From a virus (lineage: Duplodnaviria; Heunggongvirae; Uroviricota; Caudoviricetes): a stretch of 10,552 nucleotides of DNA. Under the pieces are notes generated by a model, which had not been told where the DNA came from, searched no databases, and was given only the letters and a program-made list of their open reading frames with translations. The first letter of the stretch is position 1. Each line of letters begins with the position of its first letter. Location: the IMG/VR virus record IMGVR_UViG_2684622669_000011, one strand, 5' to 3'. Positions 952 through 10,029 of the stretch are shown piece by piece. Made by a program: the position numbers and the translations under genes.

Positions 952-1315
952 AAATGCAGAAATGGCGCTTAGCTCCGCAATCGGAGAGCAGGTGGCAAAG
1001 ATTGCTGGTGCTGTGTGGATTCATAACCTTCATTCTACTGGTGAAGAGAAAATGGCAATTCAGACGCCAGAGGGACGCACCATTACTACATCTCTGAAGC
1101 CGTCAGATGTTTGTGATCTGATTTGCGCATTCATGTACCCAGCAATGAGGACTGTCCACGGCGATAAGTGGAAACTTGCGACAACCGCTGAATTTGATAT
1201 GTGGCTAAACAATGATGGCATGCTGACTGATTACGGAATAACCAAGTGGCAGATGCTGGTTAGCCATATCGCAAACGCTATAGACCACGTGGGGTACGGT
1301 GATGCGAAACATTGA
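944..1315 (+). CDS. Hypothetical small protein, 123 aa.
   Basis: ATG at 944 preceded by GGGAGG; stop TGA 1313-1315 overlaps the primase start, indicating translational coupling. No motif recognised. Confidence 0.65.
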   Translation: MRENAEMALSSAIGEQVAKIAGAVWIHNLHSTGEEKMAIQTPEGRTITTSLKPSDVCDLICAFMYPAMRTVHGDKWKLATTAEFDMWLNNDGMLTDYGITKWQMLVSHIANAIDHVGYGDAKH

Positions 1316-3569
1316 TCTTATCCGTCAGGTTATCAGTGCGTCTGAAAACAACTGGCCTCATGTGCTGGGCTGCCTGAACATAAATGTCCCTGACTCTCCG
1401 CGCCGTCATGCTCCCTGCCCTGCATGTGGGGGCAAAGATCGATTCCGGTTCGATGACAACGGGCGCGGTAGCTTCATCTGTAATCAGTGCGGCGCTGGTG
1501 ATGGGCTGGATTTAATTAAACGCGTAAATAACTGCGACACAACAGAGGCGGCGCTTCTTGCCGCTGATGTTCTGGGTATTGATTACCGGACAACGGAAAC
1601 ACCAGAAGCCACCAGCCAGAAACGGGAACAACTGGAATTTGATGACATGCGCAGAAAGGCTGTAAACGGCAAATCTGATTATCTGGTTGCGAAAGGGGTA
1701 GGTGATTTTACATTCCCCGTGTTGCCAGATGGATCTCTATTGCTGGCGCTGGTGGATAAATCCGGCGCAGTCACCGCAGCACAGACTATTACCTCACATG
1801 GTGAAAAAAGACTCCTGACAGGTTCGGCAAAGCGGGGGGCATATCACGCCATAAACGCACAGAAACGACCTCACAGCATCATAATTGCTGAGGGGGTGGC
1901 TACCGCCCTGTCGTGCCATTTAATTCGCCCTGACGCAATGACAGTGGCAGCAATCGACGCTGGCAACCTGTTGCCAGTAGCGGAAGTCATGCGCAGAACA
2001 TATCCACAGGCACAAATCATCATTGCCGCAGATAACGATCACCAGCAAGGAAACTCCGAAAGTGGAGGGATCAACACGGGGAAAGATGCCGCAGAGAGGG
2101 CCGCTATTTCCGTAGCTGGCTGGGTGTCTCTGCCACCGACTGACTATAAAGCCGACTGGAACGACTATCACCAACAACACGGGCTGGCGGCAGCCACAGC
2201 AGCATTTAAAGATTCGATGTACCAGCCACGGGGGAAAGGGGCGCAGGTGAAAAATCACAAACAGTCAGTCGGGGCGCTGAATGAGATCAGTTCTGGCGAG
2301 GTGTTAAGCGTTGATGAAATTGCTGTCCTCGAAGAAATCAACCGGACGTTTACGCATGTCACCATCGGCGGGAAACACAAGGTGGTGTCGCTAAAGCCTT
2401 CTCAAACCGGCGGTGTATCGCACGTTTTCGAGGATTTATCACAATTTCAGCATTATTTTCATCATAAACCGAGAGTCGCCAGAAAGCTGGCGGGATCGGC
2501 GTGGCTGTCATGGAGTGGGAAGAACTACAAGCCAGGAGGCGTAGGATTTTATCCAGTACCAGACAAATGCCCTGACGATGTTTTTAATCTGTATGAGGGG
2601 CTGGCACTGGAACCAATTGAAGGAGATTGCACGGTATACCTTAATCACCTGTTGCAGGTTGTCTGTGCCGGTAATGAGGAGGCATACCAATATCTTATCC
2701 AGTGGATGGCGCACATTATCCAAAAGCCTGATGAAAAACCGTCCGTGGCAATCGTGATGAAATCTGTCCCGGGCACAGGGAAAGGCACAACGGTTAAACC
2801 GCTGCTGCAAATACTGGGGCAGTACGCCGCCCACATTAACGGGGCGGGACATATTTCAGGGCGCTTCAATTCAATACTTGCTAACAAGCTACTGGTATTT
2901 GCTGACGAAGTGACGATCCACAAGCCGTCTGAAGCTGACAGACTTAAAGCGATTATTAGCGAACCGACGTTTAACCTTGAGCGCAAGGGAATTGATGCTG
3001 AACCAATGCCGAATTTTGCCCGGTTGATATTTGCCAGTAACAGCACACAGGTATTACAGGCAGGGATAAGAGAGCGTCGCTATCTCGTGCTTGAGCCATC
3101 TCCTGAAAAAGCACAGAGTCGGGAGTATTTTGATCGGCTGTACAGTTGGCTTAATGATGGCGGTGCCGCAAAGTTGCTTTGGCATCTTAAAGGGGTGGAT
3201 CTCTCAGGTTTTGACCCTCAACGAGCGCCACAGACCGATGCCTTACGTGAAGAAATCTTGCTGGGGCTGTCTGGCGTTGAATTGTTTCTTTATGGCGAGC
3301 TAATCAATGAACCTCCGTTTAATGGCGAAGTCCGTTTGTTTGCAAAGGATATGGTTAGTCGATTTGTAGCGTGGTCGCTTGAGCGTGGGGAAAAGCTTAA
3401 AGAGCCAGCAGCCAGATCACTACTGGGTAAATCACTTGCACAAATGGGGCTGGTGAAGCATGGAAGACCAGACCGAGGGAATGGCGTGTTCTACGAACTA
3501 CCAGAGGTCGGAGTTCTACAGGCTGCGTTTGCCCGTCTGATCGGTATGGGGGGTTATGATGTTTTTTAA
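1302..3569 (+). CDS. Primase-helicase of the phage/plasmid P4-alpha family (zinc-ribbon + Toprim primase + D5-like SF3 helicase), about 755 aa.
   Basis: Seen in the translation: zinc-ribbon CPACGG-KDRFRFDD-x9-CNQCG near the N-terminus; Toprim-like IIIAEGVATAL and IIIAADNDHQ acidic motifs; P-loop VMKSVPGTGKGT and Walker-B-like LLVFADEV. Start is either GTG 1299 (track) or ATG 1302; ATG 1302 is preferred because GGGG (1291-1294) sits 7 nt upstream. Followed immediately by iterons. Confidence 0.9.
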   Translation: MRNIDLIRQVISASENNWPHVLGCLNINVPDSPRRHAPCPACGGKDRFRFDDNGRGSFICNQCGAGDGLDLIKRVNNCDTTEAALLAADVLGIDYRTTETPEATSQKREQLEFDDMRRKAVNGKSDYLVAKGVGDFTFPVLPDGSLLLALVDKSGAVTAAQTITSHGEKRLLTGSAKRGAYHAINAQKRPHSIIIAEGVATALSCHLIRPDAMTVAAIDAGNLLPVAEVMRRTYPQAQIIIAADNDHQQGNSESGGINTGKDAAERAAISVAGWVSLPPTDYKADWNDYHQQHGLAAATAAFKDSMYQPRGKGAQVKNHKQSVGALNEISSGEVLSVDEIAVLEEINRTFTHVTIGGKHKVVSLKPSQTGGVSHVFEDLSQFQHYFHHKPRVARKLAGSAWLSWSGKNYKPGGVGFYPVPDKCPDDVFNLYEGLALEPIEGDCTVYLNHLLQVVCAGNEEAYQYLIQWMAHIIQKPDEKPSVAIVMKSVPGTGKGTTVKPLLQILGQYAAHINGAGHISGRFNSILANKLLVFADEVTIHKPSEADRLKAIISEPTFNLERKGIDAEPMPNFARLIFASNSTQVLQAGIRERRYLVLEPSPEKAQSREYFDRLYSWLNDGGAAKLLWHLKGVDLSGFDPQRAPQTDALREEILLGLSGVELFLYGELINEPPFNGEVRLFAKDMVSRFVAWSLERGEKLKEPAARSLLGKSLAQMGLVKHGRPDRGNGVFYELPEVGVLQAAFARLIGMGGYDVF

Positions 3570-3598
3570 TATAGTCTTTTTACAAGAAGATCGTTTTT

Positions 3599-3703
3599 AC
3601 CTGTACCACCTATACCACTTTGCTAATTCAGTATTAAAAACAGTGCGTTATAGTGGTACAGGTCAATATCTTACCTATACCAGACCTGTACCACCTATAC
3701 CAT
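3599..3703. repeat. Iteron-type replication origin: two near-identical 20-bp direct repeats flanking an AT-rich spacer that carries an inverted partial copy.
   Basis: ACCTGTACCACCTATACCAC at 3599-3618 and ACCTGTACCACCTATACCAT at 3684-3703 (19/20 identical); inverted GACCTGTACCAC on the minus strand at 3653-3664; partial ACCTATACCA at 3673-3682; AT-rich tract ttgctaattcagtattaaaaacag between them. Position directly 3' of the primase gene matches P4 ori/crr and PICI ori architecture. Confidence 0.6.
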
Positions 3704-4703: not shown

Positions 4704-4709
4704 ATAAAT

Positions 4710-4812
4710 GGTACAGGTCTGTACAGGTGGGGAGAGGTCATTTTTACCCACCTGTACCACCTGCAGGCCGCGCCACACAAGGGTTTGTGACATGGTGGTA
4801 CAGGTGGTACAG
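4710..4812. repeat. Second iteron cluster (crr-like): the same CCTGTACCACC core in both orientations.
   Basis: GGTACAGGTCTGTACAGGTGG at 4710-4730 (inverted copies), CACCTGTACCACC at 4749-4761 (forward), GGTGGTACAGGTGGTACAG at 4794-4812 (inverted tandem). Lies about 1.1 kb from the first cluster, directly after the stop of the 245-aa gene. Confidence 0.6.
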
Positions 4813-5305: not shown

Positions 5306-5479
5306 ATGGCTATTTCAGTAAAGCCAGTATTGATAAGTGAGAAGCAAATGGAAGCGATAAAGAAAATTCAGGAGGAGCAGCGTAAAAAATCAGAGGTAGG
5401 AGTTGCGCCAACGATCCACGAAATTGCTCGGGGATTAATGGATAAGGCGCTGGCTTACACTTTAACTGGACGTGGGTAA
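5306..5479 (+). CDS. Small hypothetical protein, 57 aa, possibly a DNA-binding regulator; first gene of the accessory operon. Absent from the ORF track (below its length cutoff).
   Basis: ATG 5306 preceded by AGGGGG (5295-5300) at 5-nt spacing; stop TAA 5477-5479 lies 4 nt before the ATG of the next gene. Translation MAISVKPVLISEKQMEAIKKIQEEQRKKSEVGVAPTIHEIARGLMDKALAYTLTGRG has a short beta-like N-terminus followed by two predicted helices. Confidence 0.5.
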   Translation: MAISVKPVLISEKQMEAIKKIQEEQRKKSEVGVAPTIHEIARGLMDKALAYTLTGRG

Positions 5480-5483
5480 ATTT

Positions 5484-6827
5484 ATGGCTACGTGGCAACA
5501 GGGTATTAATTCTGGTGGTTTTCTGGCTGGCATCGGTACGCAAAATGAGAATGCGCCAAAGGCAAGCGACATTAACGCAACGCTTGGTCTGATCCGCGAA
5601 AACAATGAACTGGCTCGCTCAGGTGCAAATAACGTTGCTCTGACAGGTCTTCGTGGTCTGGCTGGAGTTGCTGACATTTATAAGCAGCAGCAACAGCAGG
5701 AACGTAAAGCGGCATTCCAGAAAGGTTATGCAGATGCTTATGCGTACGGTGACAGGGAGCAGATGCGTAATCTTATTACAGCATTCCCAGAAGAGTTTGA
5801 GGAAGTCCGTAAAGGGATGAGTTATGTCGATGATGCTCAAAGGGATGATTATGGCAATCTGGCGCTCAAAGCACAGGTAGCCTCATCGCTTGGTCAGGGC
5901 GCATTTGGCAGGTTCATGATGGATAATGAGCAGGAGATGCGTCGTTTAGGTATCCCTCCAGAAACTATTGCTGAAATGCAGGTTAATGACCCGCAGGGCT
6001 TCCAGCATTTCGCAGGTAATCTGGCGCTGTTTTCTCTCGGTCATGAGAAGTATTTCGATATCAAAGATCAAATGGAAGGTCGTCGACTTGAGCAAGGGCG
6101 ACTGGATGAAAGCATCCGTCAGGCTGACATGGAGAACGCGAGAGGATGGGCAAATATCCAGAACGCTCAACTAGACAGGGCTCAGCGAGCACAAATTCAC
6201 TCAGATGAGATGGGATTGAAGCTAATGGAGCTGGGGCAAAAAGGTAAGCCGTCAGCAGACTTAATTAAGGGATTAAATTCTGACATTACCAATTTTGGCA
6301 AAAATTATAACTCTGTCAGAGCGGCGGCAAACTCTCTGCAAGCCCTTAGCAAGGTAAATACTGGCGCTGCCCAACTTGGGATTATCTTCAACTACATGAA
6401 ATCTCTTGACCCGCAGTCAGTCGTTCGTGAAGGCGAACAGGTTCAGGTAATGCGGTCTGATGGCATATGGGGACAAATCAAAGGATACATAGACCAGCTT
6501 AATGCTGGAAACGGCCTGTCGCAGGAGGCAAAGGATAACATTGTTAACGCCGCAAAAATCAACGCCAATGCTATGGGGCAGCAGTTTAACCAGCAGGTTG
6601 ACGAGTATCTCGATACATATGGAGAAACTATTCCTCAGGGGCTAAGAAAAAGCCTTGAAAGAAGGAAAGCGAAGCTATTTGACGATGTTTCCGGGCAGCC
6701 TACATCACAGGCTGGCACTGGACAGGCAAAAGCGGCAACCGGAGGAATATCAGAAGGCGCAACGGCAACCAACCCTAAAACTGGTCAGAAAATCATTTAC
6801 AGGAACGGAAAATGGCAGCAAATGTAA
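5484..6827 (+). CDS. Hypothetical low-complexity protein, about 447 aa, Gln/Asn/Ala/Gly-rich and predicted largely helical; the track lists it as 451 aa from GTG 5472.
   Basis: Long ORF with a biased but coding-like composition; ATG 5484 is favoured over GTG 5472 because it sits 4 nt after the upstream stop. Contains a QQQQQ run (CAG/CAA tract 5685-5699); no P-loop or catalytic motif recognised; 3' end overlaps the next gene by 16 nt. Confidence 0.8.
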   Translation: MATWQQGINSGGFLAGIGTQNENAPKASDINATLGLIRENNELARSGANNVALTGLRGLAGVADIYKQQQQQERKAAFQKGYADAYAYGDREQMRNLITAFPEEFEEVRKGMSYVDDAQRDDYGNLALKAQVASSLGQGAFGRFMMDNEQEMRRLGIPPETIAEMQVNDPQGFQHFAGNLALFSLGHEKYFDIKDQMEGRRLEQGRLDESIRQADMENARGWANIQNAQLDRAQRAQIHSDEMGLKLMELGQKGKPSADLIKGLNSDITNFGKNYNSVRAAANSLQALSKVNTGAAQLGIIFNYMKSLDPQSVVREGEQVQVMRSDGIWGQIKGYIDQLNAGNGLSQEAKDNIVNAAKINANAMGQQFNQQVDEYLDTYGETIPQGLRKSLERRKAKLFDDVSGQPTSQAGTGQAKAATGGISEGATATNPKTGQKIIYRNGKWQQM

Positions 6828-8929
6828 TCTTACCGGAAGGTTTTGTGCTCGATGAACAACCTGATAACTCACAGTTTCCTGATAGTTCACAGCTTCCTGA
6901 TGGTTTTGTGCTTGATGCCCAACCAGAACAGCAGCAATCACCTTTGGTTTCACCAGAGGAAAATTCCAGACAGGAAAATGTTGTTAATAATGCTAACGGT
7001 TTCGACCGTTTTATGTATGGCGTTCTCAGTGGATTGATGGATGTTGGTAAAGGTGTTGGCCTGTTTCAGGATATGACACCAGAAGAGCAAGCAGCAATTC
7101 AGTCTCTACAGCAGAAGTTAGCGGCAAAACCATCAACCGCACAAGATGTTGGTGAGTTCGTTGGACAAGCAGCGCCATTTGTTAGTGGTGGTGGGATTAT
7201 TTCTCAGGTTCCCAAAGGGGCGGCAAGACTGGCTGCCGCCGCAGGGCTTGGTGCTGGAGAAGGGGCTATTGTAGCCAATGGAACAAATAGCGATGTTGCT
7301 TCCGGCGCTGCTATTGGCGCTGTGGCTGGCCCTGTAGCCGAACTTGCTGGCCCTGCAATTAATAAAATAGCTGGGAAATTAACCAAGAAGAATGTTTCTT
7401 CGATTCCAGATATTGAGGGGATTACTCCTGCCGAAGAGAAAATTCGTAAGTTATCTGCACAAGGCAACCCAAATCTTGCCTCTTCGCTTGAAGGGCTAGA
7501 TCTAAAACCTCAGAAAGAAATTGTTGAGGCTGCAAATAGGCTTCATGTTGATTCAGTTCTTCCTTCTCATTTATCAGGAAATGAGCAATACCAAGCTGTA
7601 GAGCAAGCCCTAAAGTCACGGACAGGATCAGCGTTAAAAGCTCAAGAAGATAAAGCAATAAGCGAATTAGCCTCTAGTGCTGGCAAGATAATCGATGATG
7701 TTGCTGGTGCGCCAGATGCGTTAGCTATGAGCGAAAAATATATTTATCAGATAAATAGTAGAATGGAAGCACTAAAAAACCGTAGTGATCAGTTATATAA
7801 ACGTGTTGATTCCGCTCTATCACCAAGAACAAAAGTCGAAGCAAATAACACAAGCACTATGCTGGAAAAAATCGCTGATGATTTAGGAGGGTGGGATAAT
7901 CTTGACCCAATAGAAAAGCGAGTTTTTACAGCAATAAACCCCGGCCCAGATAGCATCCTAACGTATGCAAATTTAAACAGGCAAAGGCGTTTAGTTGGTG
8001 ATGCCCTAAATAAAAAGCAGGGGCCATACAAAGATGCTGATAAAGAAGCGCTATCAAGACTATATGGAGCTTTAGCTGAAGACCAAAAATCTGTCTTATC
8101 CAATACTGGATACTTGCGAGATTTCGAAGTCGCACAACGCCTTGTAGCTATGAGAAAAAACTTAGAAAGGCAAATGGTAAATCTTCGCGGGAAAACACTT
8201 AATGGGGATATAGCGTATAAAGTAACGAATTCTCTTCAATCTATGGCAAAAGGTGATGCGAGAGGGTTTCGTGAGATTATGCAAAATACTCCATCAAGAA
8301 CATTGCGAAGGGAGCTAGTAGGAACAGCATTAAGAGATATGCTTTCCTCTGGGAAGCGTGGGGCCGACTTTAATCCATCTGGCTTTGCAGATTGGTGGCA
8401 AAACTTGCAACACAGTGGACAGCTAAAGACTTTGGCTGAACATTTGCCAAAAGAAACAATGAGCGGACTATATGATGTATACAAAGTTGCCAGAGCAATA
8501 AAAAATGCTAAAGCGCATGAAATATCTACTGGTAAGCTGAATGAGTTTGTAAACAGATTTAATCGGGTAACAGCTCCATACGAACTAGCAGCAAAACACA
8601 TTCAAAAAATAGGCACGATGGTAGGCGCTCATTTTGGATCGCTTGGAGCCATTGCTGGGGCTGATATTGGAGCAAGATTGGCGAGTAAAGCTCGATTAGC
8701 TGGTGGAGCAGGGGCGGCTGATGCTGCGGATAAATTAATTGCCTCGCCAGCCTTCCAGAGCGCAGTAAAAAATCTACACGGAAAAGCGCCTGGGCACATT
8801 GTTGATTCACGTATCAGGCGCTCCCCTCAATGGAAGAGTTTTTTTAACTCTCTTCCTGAACAGGAAAAACGGACCATCGCCAGACTGGGCATCATTACTT
8901 GGCTATCTAATGATCCAGATAATGACTAG
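6812..8929 (+). CDS. Hypothetical large protein, 705 aa, with an N-terminal tandem repeat (LPEGFVLDEQ / PDNSQF / PDSSQL / PDGFVLDAQ), two Gly/Ala-rich glycine-zipper-like segments and an AT-rich central region.
   Basis: ATG 6812 with an AGGA SD (6801-6804); overlaps the stop of the upstream gene, indicating coupling. No Walker A, HExxH or other catalytic signature seen. Gly/Ala-rich stretches at residues about 118-189 (nt 7163-7378) and 599-642 (nt 8606-8737). Stop TAG 8927-8929. Confidence 0.85.
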   Translation: MAANVILPEGFVLDEQPDNSQFPDSSQLPDGFVLDAQPEQQQSPLVSPEENSRQENVVNNANGFDRFMYGVLSGLMDVGKGVGLFQDMTPEEQAAIQSLQQKLAAKPSTAQDVGEFVGQAAPFVSGGGIISQVPKGAARLAAAAGLGAGEGAIVANGTNSDVASGAAIGAVAGPVAELAGPAINKIAGKLTKKNVSSIPDIEGITPAEEKIRKLSAQGNPNLASSLEGLDLKPQKEIVEAANRLHVDSVLPSHLSGNEQYQAVEQALKSRTGSALKAQEDKAISELASSAGKIIDDVAGAPDALAMSEKYIYQINSRMEALKNRSDQLYKRVDSALSPRTKVEANNTSTMLEKIADDLGGWDNLDPIEKRVFTAINPGPDSILTYANLNRQRRLVGDALNKKQGPYKDADKEALSRLYGALAEDQKSVLSNTGYLRDFEVAQRLVAMRKNLERQMVNLRGKTLNGDIAYKVTNSLQSMAKGDARGFREIMQNTPSRTLRRELVGTALRDMLSSGKRGADFNPSGFADWWQNLQHSGQLKTLAEHLPKETMSGLYDVYKVARAIKNAKAHEISTGKLNEFVNRFNRVTAPYELAAKHIQKIGTMVGAHFGSLGAIAGADIGARLASKARLAGGAGAADAADKLIASPAFQSAVKNLHGKAPGHIVDSRIRRSPQWKSFFNSLPEQEKRTIARLGIITWLSNDPDND
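6860..6895 (+). repeat. In-frame 18-bp tandem repeat (two units plus a partial third) inside the 5' end of the 705-aa gene.
   Basis: CCTGATAACTCACAGTTT (6860-6877) followed by CCTGATAGTTCACAGCTT (6878-6895) and CCTGATGG; bracketed by the 16-bp direct repeat GGTTTTGTGCT(C/T)GATG at 6837-6852 and 6901-6916. Confidence 0.7.
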
Positions 8930-8948: not shown

Positions 8949-9374
8949 TCAATCTTTATTCTTTGAAATAGAGTCATTGATCTTTTCGAAACACCAATGA
9001 AATCCACAAAAGAGAGCTACACCAATATAACAATACAAAACTATCAACCACCTTTCAGTGTCCGAAGGGTAAAAAACATCAATTACATAAGCAACACCAA
9101 TTGGTATTAATGCTAGTAATAACATCGACACAGGACGTACAAACTTCTGAACTATATCAATTTTATAGAACCACAAGGCGGTATGTTTAATGATATAAGT
9201 AAAGATGGCTGCGCCAATAATGGCAAAAAACACCATCGATAAAGTCGGGTATAACTTTGCGACAATTAAACCCAACAAAATAATTATAACTGCCTGCCCC
9301 CTCACACCAACCCTCCCTTTAGCTTTGTTTAGAATGGCAATCATCATATATCCAAGACATGGCATTTGGTACAT
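8949..9374 (-). CDS. Small multi-pass membrane protein (141 aa from ATG 9374, or about 118 aa from GTG 9305), convergent with the 705-aa gene.
   Basis: Translation has three to four strongly hydrophobic helices (VIIILLGLIVAKL, MVFFAIIGAAIFTYII, VSMLLLALIPIGVAYVI, WLIVLYCYIGVALFCGF). No SD before ATG 9374, but a strong AAGGGAGGG (9312-9320) precedes the in-frame GTG 9305 at 6-nt spacing. Very AT-rich. Confidence 0.6.
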   Translation of the reverse strand: MYQMPCLGYMMIAILNKAKGRVGVRGQAVIIILLGLIVAKLYPTLSMVFFAIIGAAIFTYIIKHTALWFYKIDIVQKFVRPVSMLLLALIPIGVAYVIDVFYPSDTERWLIVLYCYIGVALFCGFHWCFEKINDSISKNKD

Positions 9375-9522
9375 AGCTTGGGTCGGGATTTCAAATCCGC
9401 TCCCCGTTGATGGGGCCGTTACAGTACGCGCATATCCTCTTTATGTGAAACAGGAAGATTTTTCTGATATCACTGCCACAGCAAAACACCAATTTCGTGA
9501 CCAGTACGCGCGCGAGGGGTAT

Positions 9523-9546
9523 CAGTTGCAAAAAATTTTGCAACTG
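9523..9546. promoter_or_regulatory. Candidate operator: perfect 11-bp inverted repeat with a 2-bp spacer.
   Basis: CAGTTGCAAAA (9523-9533), spacer AA, TTTTGCAACTG (9536-9546); flanked by the 11-bp direct repeats GACCAGTACGC at 9499-9509 and 9552-9562. Lies in the non-coding region upstream of the minus-strand membrane gene. Confidence 0.5.
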
Positions 9547-9828
9547 CGTCCGACCAGTACGCACACGATGGCGGGGAGCACCATAAAACTGTTCTCTACA
9601 TAAGACAGAGTGGTGGTGATGTGTTGATTATCGGCGTATATGCGCACAGGACGCGCTATGACGATGTTTTATGCGGGTACACCAATCACATGTATCTGGT
9701 GTGATCAATCGCGTTACATGACATCTCATGTTGTGCTGGTGATTATCACGACGTTCTGAATCTGGCCTTTGCCTGATATTTTGCGACAAGTACGCGCGCG
9801 TAGCATCGACAGCATACACATTGGATAT

Positions 9829-10029
9829 TCATTTTGTGACCAATGCGATAAGTAGCGGGATAAGAATTGATAAAATCAACAGGACGATGATCCACTTTTG
9901 ATTCTCGTCCATCTTATCTGCTAGGCGACGCTCCATTCCGTGCATATCACCGCGAATGGCAATCATCTCATTGCGAACATCCGAGAAGTGGTTGGCTTGA
10001 TGTTCAATGTGTGGCGTTCTGCCTTTCAT
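9829..10029 (-). CDS. Small tail-anchored membrane protein, 66 aa: charged, predicted helical N-terminus and a single C-terminal transmembrane helix (topology like XhlA-type phage membrane proteins).
   Basis: ATG 10029 preceded by GAGGA at about 6-nt spacing; translation ends in WIIVLLILSILIPLLIALVTK after a charged segment (VRNEMIAIRGDMHGMERRLADKMDENQK). Confidence 0.65.
   Translation of the reverse strand: MKGRTPHIEHQANHFSDVRNEMIAIRGDMHGMERRLADKMDENQKWIIVLLILSILIPLLIALVTK

Follow-up and report, generated by a model that had tools for sequence, protein, structure and literature searches.

Introduction

That a satellite can carry the packaging signal of its helper phage is an established idea, as seen in P4 and SaPIbov5. 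The closest described relative of the locus considered here is EcCIMP1, an island of E. coli reported by Pick, Stadel and Raivio in 2025 (PMC11773190), which is excised and then specifically transduced by the P22-like phage Kapi1 while a chromosomal marker is not transduced. Transduction by Kapi1 occurs at a very low rate, and the island also contributes to immunity against this phage (PMC11773190). EcCIMP1 encodes neither terminase nor capsid genes, and the mechanism by which it is packaged was stated to be unknown; three hypothetical proteins were named as packaging candidates, and the non-coding cassette that is the subject of the present analysis is not described in that work (PMC11773190). 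Since EcCIMP1 is specifically transduced by Kapi1 and has no terminase of its own, a cis-acting signal that is recognised by the helper must exist somewhere on the island.

Kapi1, the proven helper of EcCIMP1, is a P22-like Lederbergvirus with a genome of 39.4 kb, and its small terminase (TerS) is 100% identical to gp1 of phage Sf6. Sf6 uses headful packaging (PMC5630979). The DNA recognition of Sf6-type TerS proteins has resisted in-vitro binding studies, in which Sf6 TerS showed weak and largely sequence-independent DNA binding (review PMC9611059). Islands of the EcCIMP1 type, which encode the virulence regulator PerC, occur in about one tenth of complete E. coli genomes, and a defined cis signal makes the question of how EcCIMP1 is packaged directly testable.

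Results

The island and its genes

The window, that is, the whole stretch of DNA that was analysed (10,552 nt; IMG/VR record IMGVR_UViG_2684622669_000011), represents an EcCIMP1-type phage satellite (PICI) of E. coli. In the closest genome, the order of island genes is integrase, AlpA, antirepressor, Icd, primase, ejection genes and perC. EcCIMP1 belongs to the same island family and shares the non-coding cassette, whereas the primase, the iterons and the ejection-gene alleles of the window are not those of EcCIMP1. The main features of the window are as follows.

nt 1299-3569: P4-type primase gene
nt 5472-6827: P22-like DNA-ejection gene, homologue of gp20
nt 6812-8929: P22-like DNA-ejection gene, gp16-like
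nt 8949-9374, minus strand: gene for a membrane protein of 141 aa
nt 9380-9809, no strand: non-coding cassette of about 430 bp, conserved as a block
right of the cassette, minus strand: two small genes

Two iteron clusters (CCTGTACCACC) are present in the window, one right after the primase gene (nt 3596-3702) and the other at nt 4709-4812. In L001, a related island, and in EcCIMP1 the clusters consist of a different iteron, TGAACCAAC, and are found just after the primase gene and upstream of perC (nt 9240-9342 and 16366-16478 in L001); TGAACCAAC is the iteron of islands with the 918-aa DUF927 primase. The primases of the window and L001 are unrelated beyond their N-terminal third. Two primase-specific clusters per island is a layout comparable to the ori plus crr of P4, and the CCTGTACCACC and TGAACCAAC clusters are likely to be the replication origins of these elements.

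Homologues of the P22 ejection genes gp14/DUF2824, gp7, gp20 and gp16 are encoded by the satellite (nt 5472-8929 of the window; nt 9977-14635 of L001), the corresponding region of Kapi1 (L002) being nt 27948-32582. The gp20 and gp16 genes of the window share about 89-90% DNA identity with those of Kapi1, and those of another island are only about 71% identical to the genes of the window. These values suggest that ejection genes may be continuously exchanged between helper and satellite. A metagenome contig of 25,380 bp (L138/L318; IMG/VR contig 3300045988_004969) consists of a phage part, with Sf6-type terS, terL, portal, coat and other genes up to gp7, joined to an island part with an island-type gp16, a gene for a 130-aa membrane protein, the cassette and an alpA_1-like gene. 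Either the assembly is chimeric, joined through the ejection genes that both elements share, or the contig is a genuine recombinant of phage and satellite. A mosaic junction is present in the window at nt 9243, inside the gene for the 141-aa membrane protein: the first ~44 codons (nt 9243-9374) are common to other islands while the C-terminal part differs. This gene occupies the position of sieA in P22-like phages, but no homology was found, and comparison of the 141-aa and 66-aa proteins that flank the cassette with the Kapi1 genes in the corresponding place gave no homology either. Searches of Pfam, PHROGs, NCBIfam and PADLOC with the flanking small proteins returned nothing informative.

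A conserved, non-coding cassette

Of 5426 complete E. coli genomes, 546 (~10%) carry the cassette, always on the chromosome and at 95-99% identity. Homology to EcCIMP1 begins at nt 9380 and stops at nt 9809, with an identity of 96% even though both flanking genes differ. The right flank is exchanged at nt 9809 in many islands. Between the window and L001 the cassette is 98.5% identical, and it is found unchanged in islands at three integration sites (tRNA-Thr/proA, dinD and paoD). In one island an IS3 element interrupts the region at nt 9625, and island L004, a different element, keeps only a sub-module corresponding to nt 9692-9809. On this comparison the cassette is, whatever its role, a self-contained unit that appears to act independently of its neighbours.

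The earlier view that the region contains no credible open reading frame stands. Related islands differ by indels of 1 and 2 nt at a poly-G run (nt 9576-9580), the only protein-like frame of the cassette is broken by an in-frame TGA in EcCIMP1, and the plus-strand ORFs that the NCBI annotation pipeline places in the cassette vary from genome to genome. A tblastn search with the protein-like plus-strand frame found no homologue among phages, and the cassette is therefore not a decayed gene either. A known family of structured RNA was also rejected: a permissive Rfam search (E ≤ 1) gave no match to the cassette, scanning of the window for tRNA and tmRNA genes placed none there, and the predicted folding of both strands was unremarkable (z-scores of -0.8 and -1.9). 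Scanning the cassette for promoters and terminators gave promoter-like matches at chance level, with one weak sigma-70-like match on the plus strand (nt 9718-9746), and no terminator.

Repeat structure

When extended, the repeat unit of the cassette is a box of 24-30 bp, (GAG)TTTYGNGAC(C/A)AGTACGCGCG(CGAGGG), with the core GAC(A/C)AGTACGCG. There are three clear copies in direct orientation, together with weaker ones, and a further copy is found downstream of perC, near the end of the island. The repeats and boxes are listed below.

nt 9386-9398, no strand: 6-1-6 palindrome GGATTTCAAATCC at the left edge of the cassette, conserved in 6 of 6 aligned islands
nt 9415-9431, plus strand: weak partial box (ACAGTACGCGC), repeat family D1
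nt 9492-9518, plus strand: box A, Q type, terS-like (ATTTCGTGACCAGTACGCGCGCGAGGG), of which TTTCGTGACCAGTACGCG matches a Q-type variant of Sf6-family terS at 18/18 and Kapi1 terS at 16/18
nt 9523-9546 (arms 9523-9533 and 9536-9546), no strand: perfect 11-bp inverted repeat with an A6T4 centre, family I1
nt 9545-9571, plus strand: middle box, degenerate (TGCGTCCGACCAGTACGCACACGATGG), repeat families D1 and D2, 53 bp downstream of box A and in the same orientation
nt 9640-9656, plus strand: weak partial box (ACAGGACGCGC), repeat family D1
nt 9778-9804, plus strand: box B, K type, terS-like (ATTTTGCGACAAGTACGCGCGCGTAGC), matching Kapi1 terS at 17/18 and lying inside the sub-module 9692-9809
nt 9831-9847, plus strand: possible weak box (ATTTTGTGACCAATGCG), family D3, 82% to box A and maybe a chance match

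The last of these lies outside the cassette, where it overlaps the 3' end of the oppositely oriented 66-aa gene. The direct-repeat family itself (GACCAGTACGCGCGCG) occupies nt 9499-9518, 9552-9571 and 9785-9804, with shorter copies at nt 9422-9431 and 9647-9656. Upstream of box A, the sequence GCAAAACAC resembles terS codons for AKH. In EcCIMP1, box A reads GACAAG, as in the helper Kapi1.

Most of the repeats noticed originally were recovered, namely the direct repeats at nt 9499 and 9552 around the perfect inverted repeat, the long repeat at nt 9499-9514 and 9785-9800, and its shorter variants, which correspond to the short copy at nt 9422-9431 and the family member at nt 9552-9571. The long repeat is part of a pair of 23-mers (nt 9492-9514 and 9778-9800) that agree at 20 of 23 positions, compared with about 7e-5 such pairs expected by chance in 430 bp (analytic estimate). 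The motif AGTACGC occurs four times on the plus strand within 370 bp, and five times in the 10.5-kb window where 0.75 would be expected; GACCAGTACGCGC, at up to three mismatches, gave six matches against an expectation of 1.56. Neither count was reached in any of 200 shuffles, which places the repeats far above chance. Two details required correction. The 6-1-6 palindrome exists but its coordinates had been one base off (nt 9385-9397 instead of 9386-9398), and of a motif thought to be present three times (CTGGTG..GATYAATC) a single pair was recovered, matching at 10/11 (nt 9622-9632 and 9737-9747), for which about 0.75 pairs are estimated to arise by chance; this motif was therefore left out of the repeats counted here.

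The inverted repeat separates box A from the middle box and could bend the DNA intrinsically or serve as the binding site of a dimeric protein. Among islands its centre reads either AAAAAATTTT or AAAATTTTTT, which are exact reverse complements of each other, while the arms are conserved. Such a flip is what inversion at a hairpin or cruciform would be predicted to produce.

The box lies inside the small-terminase gene of the helper

Because the helper has to find a packaging signal on the satellite, the Kapi1 genome was searched for the box, and the sole good match was found inside terS. When cassette 18-mers were compared with both strands of the whole genome, the best was that of box B, which matches terS at 17/18 (L002, nt 18875-18892); box A meets the same spot at 16/18. 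Matches of at least 17/18 anywhere in the Kapi1 genome are estimated at ~0.03 by chance, and a further factor of ~0.0025 (also an estimate) applies if the match has to fall, in sense orientation, within the ~200 bp of terS coding for the DNA-binding domain, but a match of 17-18 nt is short and 17/18 is just one step over noise, an unrelated match of 16/18 being present in Kapi1 too. The terS box covers codons 57-64 (FRDKYAKA) on the sense strand, in the part coding for the DNA-binding domain. The pac site of Sf6 was reportedly mapped, by genetic means, to the portion of gene 1 coding for this domain (Leavitt et al. 2013), and we take this region, known by its approximate position in gene 1, to be the one in which the terS box lies. 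The cassette shares sequence with the presumed packaging-recognition region of helper terS, within the approximate location known for Sf6 pac, and we infer that the box may be the Sf6 pac site itself.

The likeness of the cassette to terS is limited to the box and a few upstream codons, with no other terS similarity. When the cassette was compared by blastn with 50,697 phage records, noise alone was returned, an 18-nt match being below the significance level of BLAST, and no other similarity to phage DNA was seen.

Constraint on the DNA sequence of the box in terS genes

Among 64 distinct Sf6-type terS sequences, GAC(A/C)AGTACGCGAAGGCA is nearly invariant inside an otherwise variable N-terminal half, and one natural variant, the Q type, is identical to box A of the window across TTTCGTGACCAGTACGCG. 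The arginine codon directly before this stretch is free to vary, and variation in the non-coding boxes falls on the matching positions. Codon choice was then compared in terS genes that had been retrieved with a fully degenerate-codon DNA pattern for the peptide F-R-D-Q-Y-A-R-A-R-E, which avoids codon-choice bias, and dereplicated at 80% amino acid identity, giving 71 genes. The same amino acids elsewhere within the same genes served as the control.

Codon usage in the box differs from that of the remaining gene at several positions: GAC is used in 96% of cases compared with 58% elsewhere (p = 2e-12), CAA in 62% compared with 34% (p = 2e-5), opposite to the GC trend, GCG at two positions in 61% and 59% compared with 28% (p = 3e-8 and 1e-7), and CGC in 71% compared with 42% (p = 4e-6), p-values that overstate independence because the terS genes are related to each other. 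The two codons after the box show no codon bias in the same 71 genes. In other conserved motifs of the 71 genes, usage is 15% for GCG and 69-78% for GAC. CGC is likewise favoured (70%) at another conserved terS arginine, and part of the codon skew is therefore not specific to the box. Judged against both controls, within the genes and at other motifs, the synonymous skew of the box in the 71 genes indicates selection on the DNA sequence that goes beyond what the peptide requires.

The original prediction had offered four kinds of cis-acting site for this region: packaging site, element boundary or att remnant, second origin, and multi-operator control region. With the repeated box matching the one in helper terS, which is under constraint at the DNA level in terS genes, the first of these is favoured and the other three are disfavoured.

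Boxes outside terS

When the box pattern was run against one genome per species, 102 loci were detected, compared with a naive expectation of about 17. About three of the loci lie in intact terS genes; the others are in short frames with unrelated flanks. Conservation across the loci reaches only GAG before the core and CGCGAGGG after it, both edges lying outside the search pattern, and then falls to zero. Two or more copies of the box are present in 40 of the 102 loci, mostly as direct repeats and in several cases spaced ~59-69 bp apart, and at least 29 loci are accompanied, at a distance of up to 8 kb, by a P4-type integrase, AlpA or a DUF927 primase. A box-bearing island of Haemophilus carries a D5-type primase and Ash, and in an island of Hymenobacter (Bacteroidota) a cluster of five boxes adjoins an integrase and a BT4734-like primase (Pfam assignments). 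Most contigs with non-coding boxes in the viral-contig collection measure 17-23 kb, roughly half of the 39.4-kb helper genome. A full-text literature search for the box sequence returned unrelated primers only.

In related islands of Lonsdalea, Shimwellia, Enterobacter, Scandinavium and Buttiauxella, a box is located upstream of icd (L063, nt 2093; L077, nt 1821; L078, nt 2680-2977; L030; L090; L110), and hence the box shifts among the non-coding slots of islands while keeping its orientation. In Shimwellia and Enterobacter it is found between a DUF4222 gene and icd, where E. coli has an annotated 'ash' pseudogene. The entries L129, with a TerS 100% identical to Sf6 gp1, and L319/L345, a cassette island with a K-type box A, share an isolate identifier (IMG isolate 2563366968), a single anecdotal case of a satellite and its predicted type of helper in one genome. 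On a viral contig of 55 kb (L234; IMG/VR contig 2687453468_000003) a box-bearing terS is accompanied, ~5 kb away, by two non-coding boxes with a spacing of 575 bp, so that extra boxes may be present in some phages or neighbouring elements too.

Discussion

Function of the cassette

The presence of the box within the terS gene of the helper makes the cassette most likely a signal for packing the satellite into helper capsids. Specifically, it would be an array of pac-site mimics that recruits the Sf6-type terminase of the helper for packaging of the satellite, which on balance we think is probably correct. Induction of the helper would lead to excision and replication of the satellite, and the ring-shaped TerS of the helper would bind the boxes, with the A/T-centred palindrome between two of them perhaps aiding the bending or wrapping of DNA. 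TerS would then recruit the large terminase, a cut would be made nearby, and satellite concatemers would be packed by the headful into helper capsids, two copies of a 20-kb satellite being close to one 39-kb helper genome. From the sequences we infer that TerS would bind and the DNA would be cleaved in this way, and that the cassette would be necessary for transduction. The boxes make up about 80 of the 430 conserved bases; the remaining ~350, including the perfect palindrome, are equally conserved and are unaccounted for by the model.

Several boxes on the satellite against a single one in the helper could also compete for the terminase. A different reading of the cassette is that of a decoy, in which the boxes bind the small terminase of the helper mainly to titrate it and to disturb packaging of the helper, as a form of superinfection immunity or of helper exploitation, and not to package the satellite. 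The sequence evidence is the same as for packaging, the number of boxes in the cassette agrees with it, and EcCIMP1 both adds immunity to Kapi1 and is transduced at a very low rate (PMC11773190). The specific transfer of EcCIMP1 by Kapi1, with the chromosomal marker not moved, nevertheless needs some packaging signal, and a role mainly as a decoy seems improbable to us. The two roles are compatible, and the present data do not separate them.

The boxes might instead be inert debris, that is, functionless fragments of terS acquired by recombination with helper phages. Satellite and helper do exchange DNA, as is seen from ejection genes ~90% identical to those of Kapi1 and from one hybrid contig, and the terS-like codons upstream of box A (AKH-QFRDQYAR; tblastn E-value of 0.02 in a tiny search space) could be relics of such an event. 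This origin is hard to reconcile with the finding that a piece of terS of ~25 nt is all that is present, several times and in a single orientation, in a cassette that remains 95-99% conserved while its flanks have been replaced. Across phyla, too, conservation ends sharply at the edges of the box and direct multi-copy arrays recur, and we consider debris unlikely.

Operators or promoters for the neighbouring genes, or a non-coding RNA, form another alternative, with the box and palindrome serving as regulator sites. The perfect 24-bp palindrome resembles the site of a dimeric protein, the cassette lies upstream of the minus-strand gene for the 141-aa membrane protein in the window, and there is the one weak sigma-70-like match on the plus strand. 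The neighbouring genes, however, differ among islands that share the cassette, and in EcCIMP1 the left neighbour is the end, not the start, of a co-directional gene. An array of operators for neighbouring regulators, originally suggested with the RHH and 57-aa proteins in mind, does not fit a cassette that remains 95-99% identical when the genes to its right are swapped and the gene to its left is a different one. Promoter-like matches at chance level, together with the lack of a terminator, an Rfam match or unusual folding, argue in the same direction, and the codon-constrained box in terS genes would be left unexplained. A control region or small RNA thus has a low probability.

Other types of site agree less well with the locus. 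An element boundary or att remnant would be expected at the end of the island, but comparison of related islands places the cassette 1.7-3.5 kb inside, separated from the end by perC and more, and this position, together with its occurrence at three integration sites, rules out an att remnant; the published att core of EcCIMP1 is TCCTATTATC (PMC11773190). A cos site, whether of the lambda or the P2/P4 type, was rejected for a P22-like helper with an Sf6-type TerS and headful packaging. A second origin, with the repeats acting as iterons for the primase-helicase of the satellite, is very improbable: ordered direct repeats in the non-coding DNA of an element with a P4-type primase would suit it, but true iteron clusters lie elsewhere and change with the type of primase, whereas the cassette, which does not adjoin the initiator gene and has no AT-rich stretch (GC 45-50%), is 98.5% identical in the window and L001 despite primases that are unrelated past the N-terminal third, and the same box occurs near primases of unrelated families in other phyla.

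If the cassette is an array of pac-site mimics, the box would be the first concrete candidate for a sequence recognised by Sf6-type small terminases. A wider proposal, which we put forward tentatively and hold to be possible, is that the box of ~24 bp (TTYCGCGACCARTACGCGCGCGCG) is the pac site of the whole family of Sf6-gp1-like TerS proteins across phyla, kept in place by synonymous selection and copied as non-coding direct arrays by integrase/primase islands that lack packaging genes. If true, this would account for the mobilisation of the abundant 'type C' PICI-like elements and provide a predictor, based on one motif, of which satellite uses which helper. Should the cross-phylum pattern hold, a short motif could flag satellites without recognisable packaging genes and predict the class of their helpers.

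Comparison with known packaging systems

The helper box resembles the terS-embedded pac sites of the headful phages P22 (gene 3) and Sf6 (gene 1) in that it lies on the sense strand of terS and is under synonymous constraint. The box of the cassette differs from these in being non-coding and multi-copy, and in being carried by a satellite that has no terminase gene. In this respect the logic is that of P4, which uses the cos of P2, of SaPIbov5 and of the cos-type PICIs of E. coli such as EcCICFT073 (cited in PMC11773190), where a satellite without a terminase copies the signal of its helper. Those elements use the cos of cos-packaging helpers, whereas here the helper packages by the headful and the signal would be a pac-type box taken from terS and arranged as an array. 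EcCICFT073 additionally redirects TerS by means of Rpp, while no redirecting protein is recognisable in the window.

The arrangement of the cassette is also similar to the pac region of phage SPP1, where pacL and pacR are placed around the cut and the DNA is bent. In both cases several TerS-type boxes are spread over a few hundred bp, and the cassette, like SPP1 pac, has an A/T-tract element between two boxes (for SPP1, see the review PMC9611059). The two are unrelated in sequence and belong with different TerS families. A pac-type box derived from terS, arrayed in a satellite and recurring in islands of several phyla, would to our knowledge be new among these systems.
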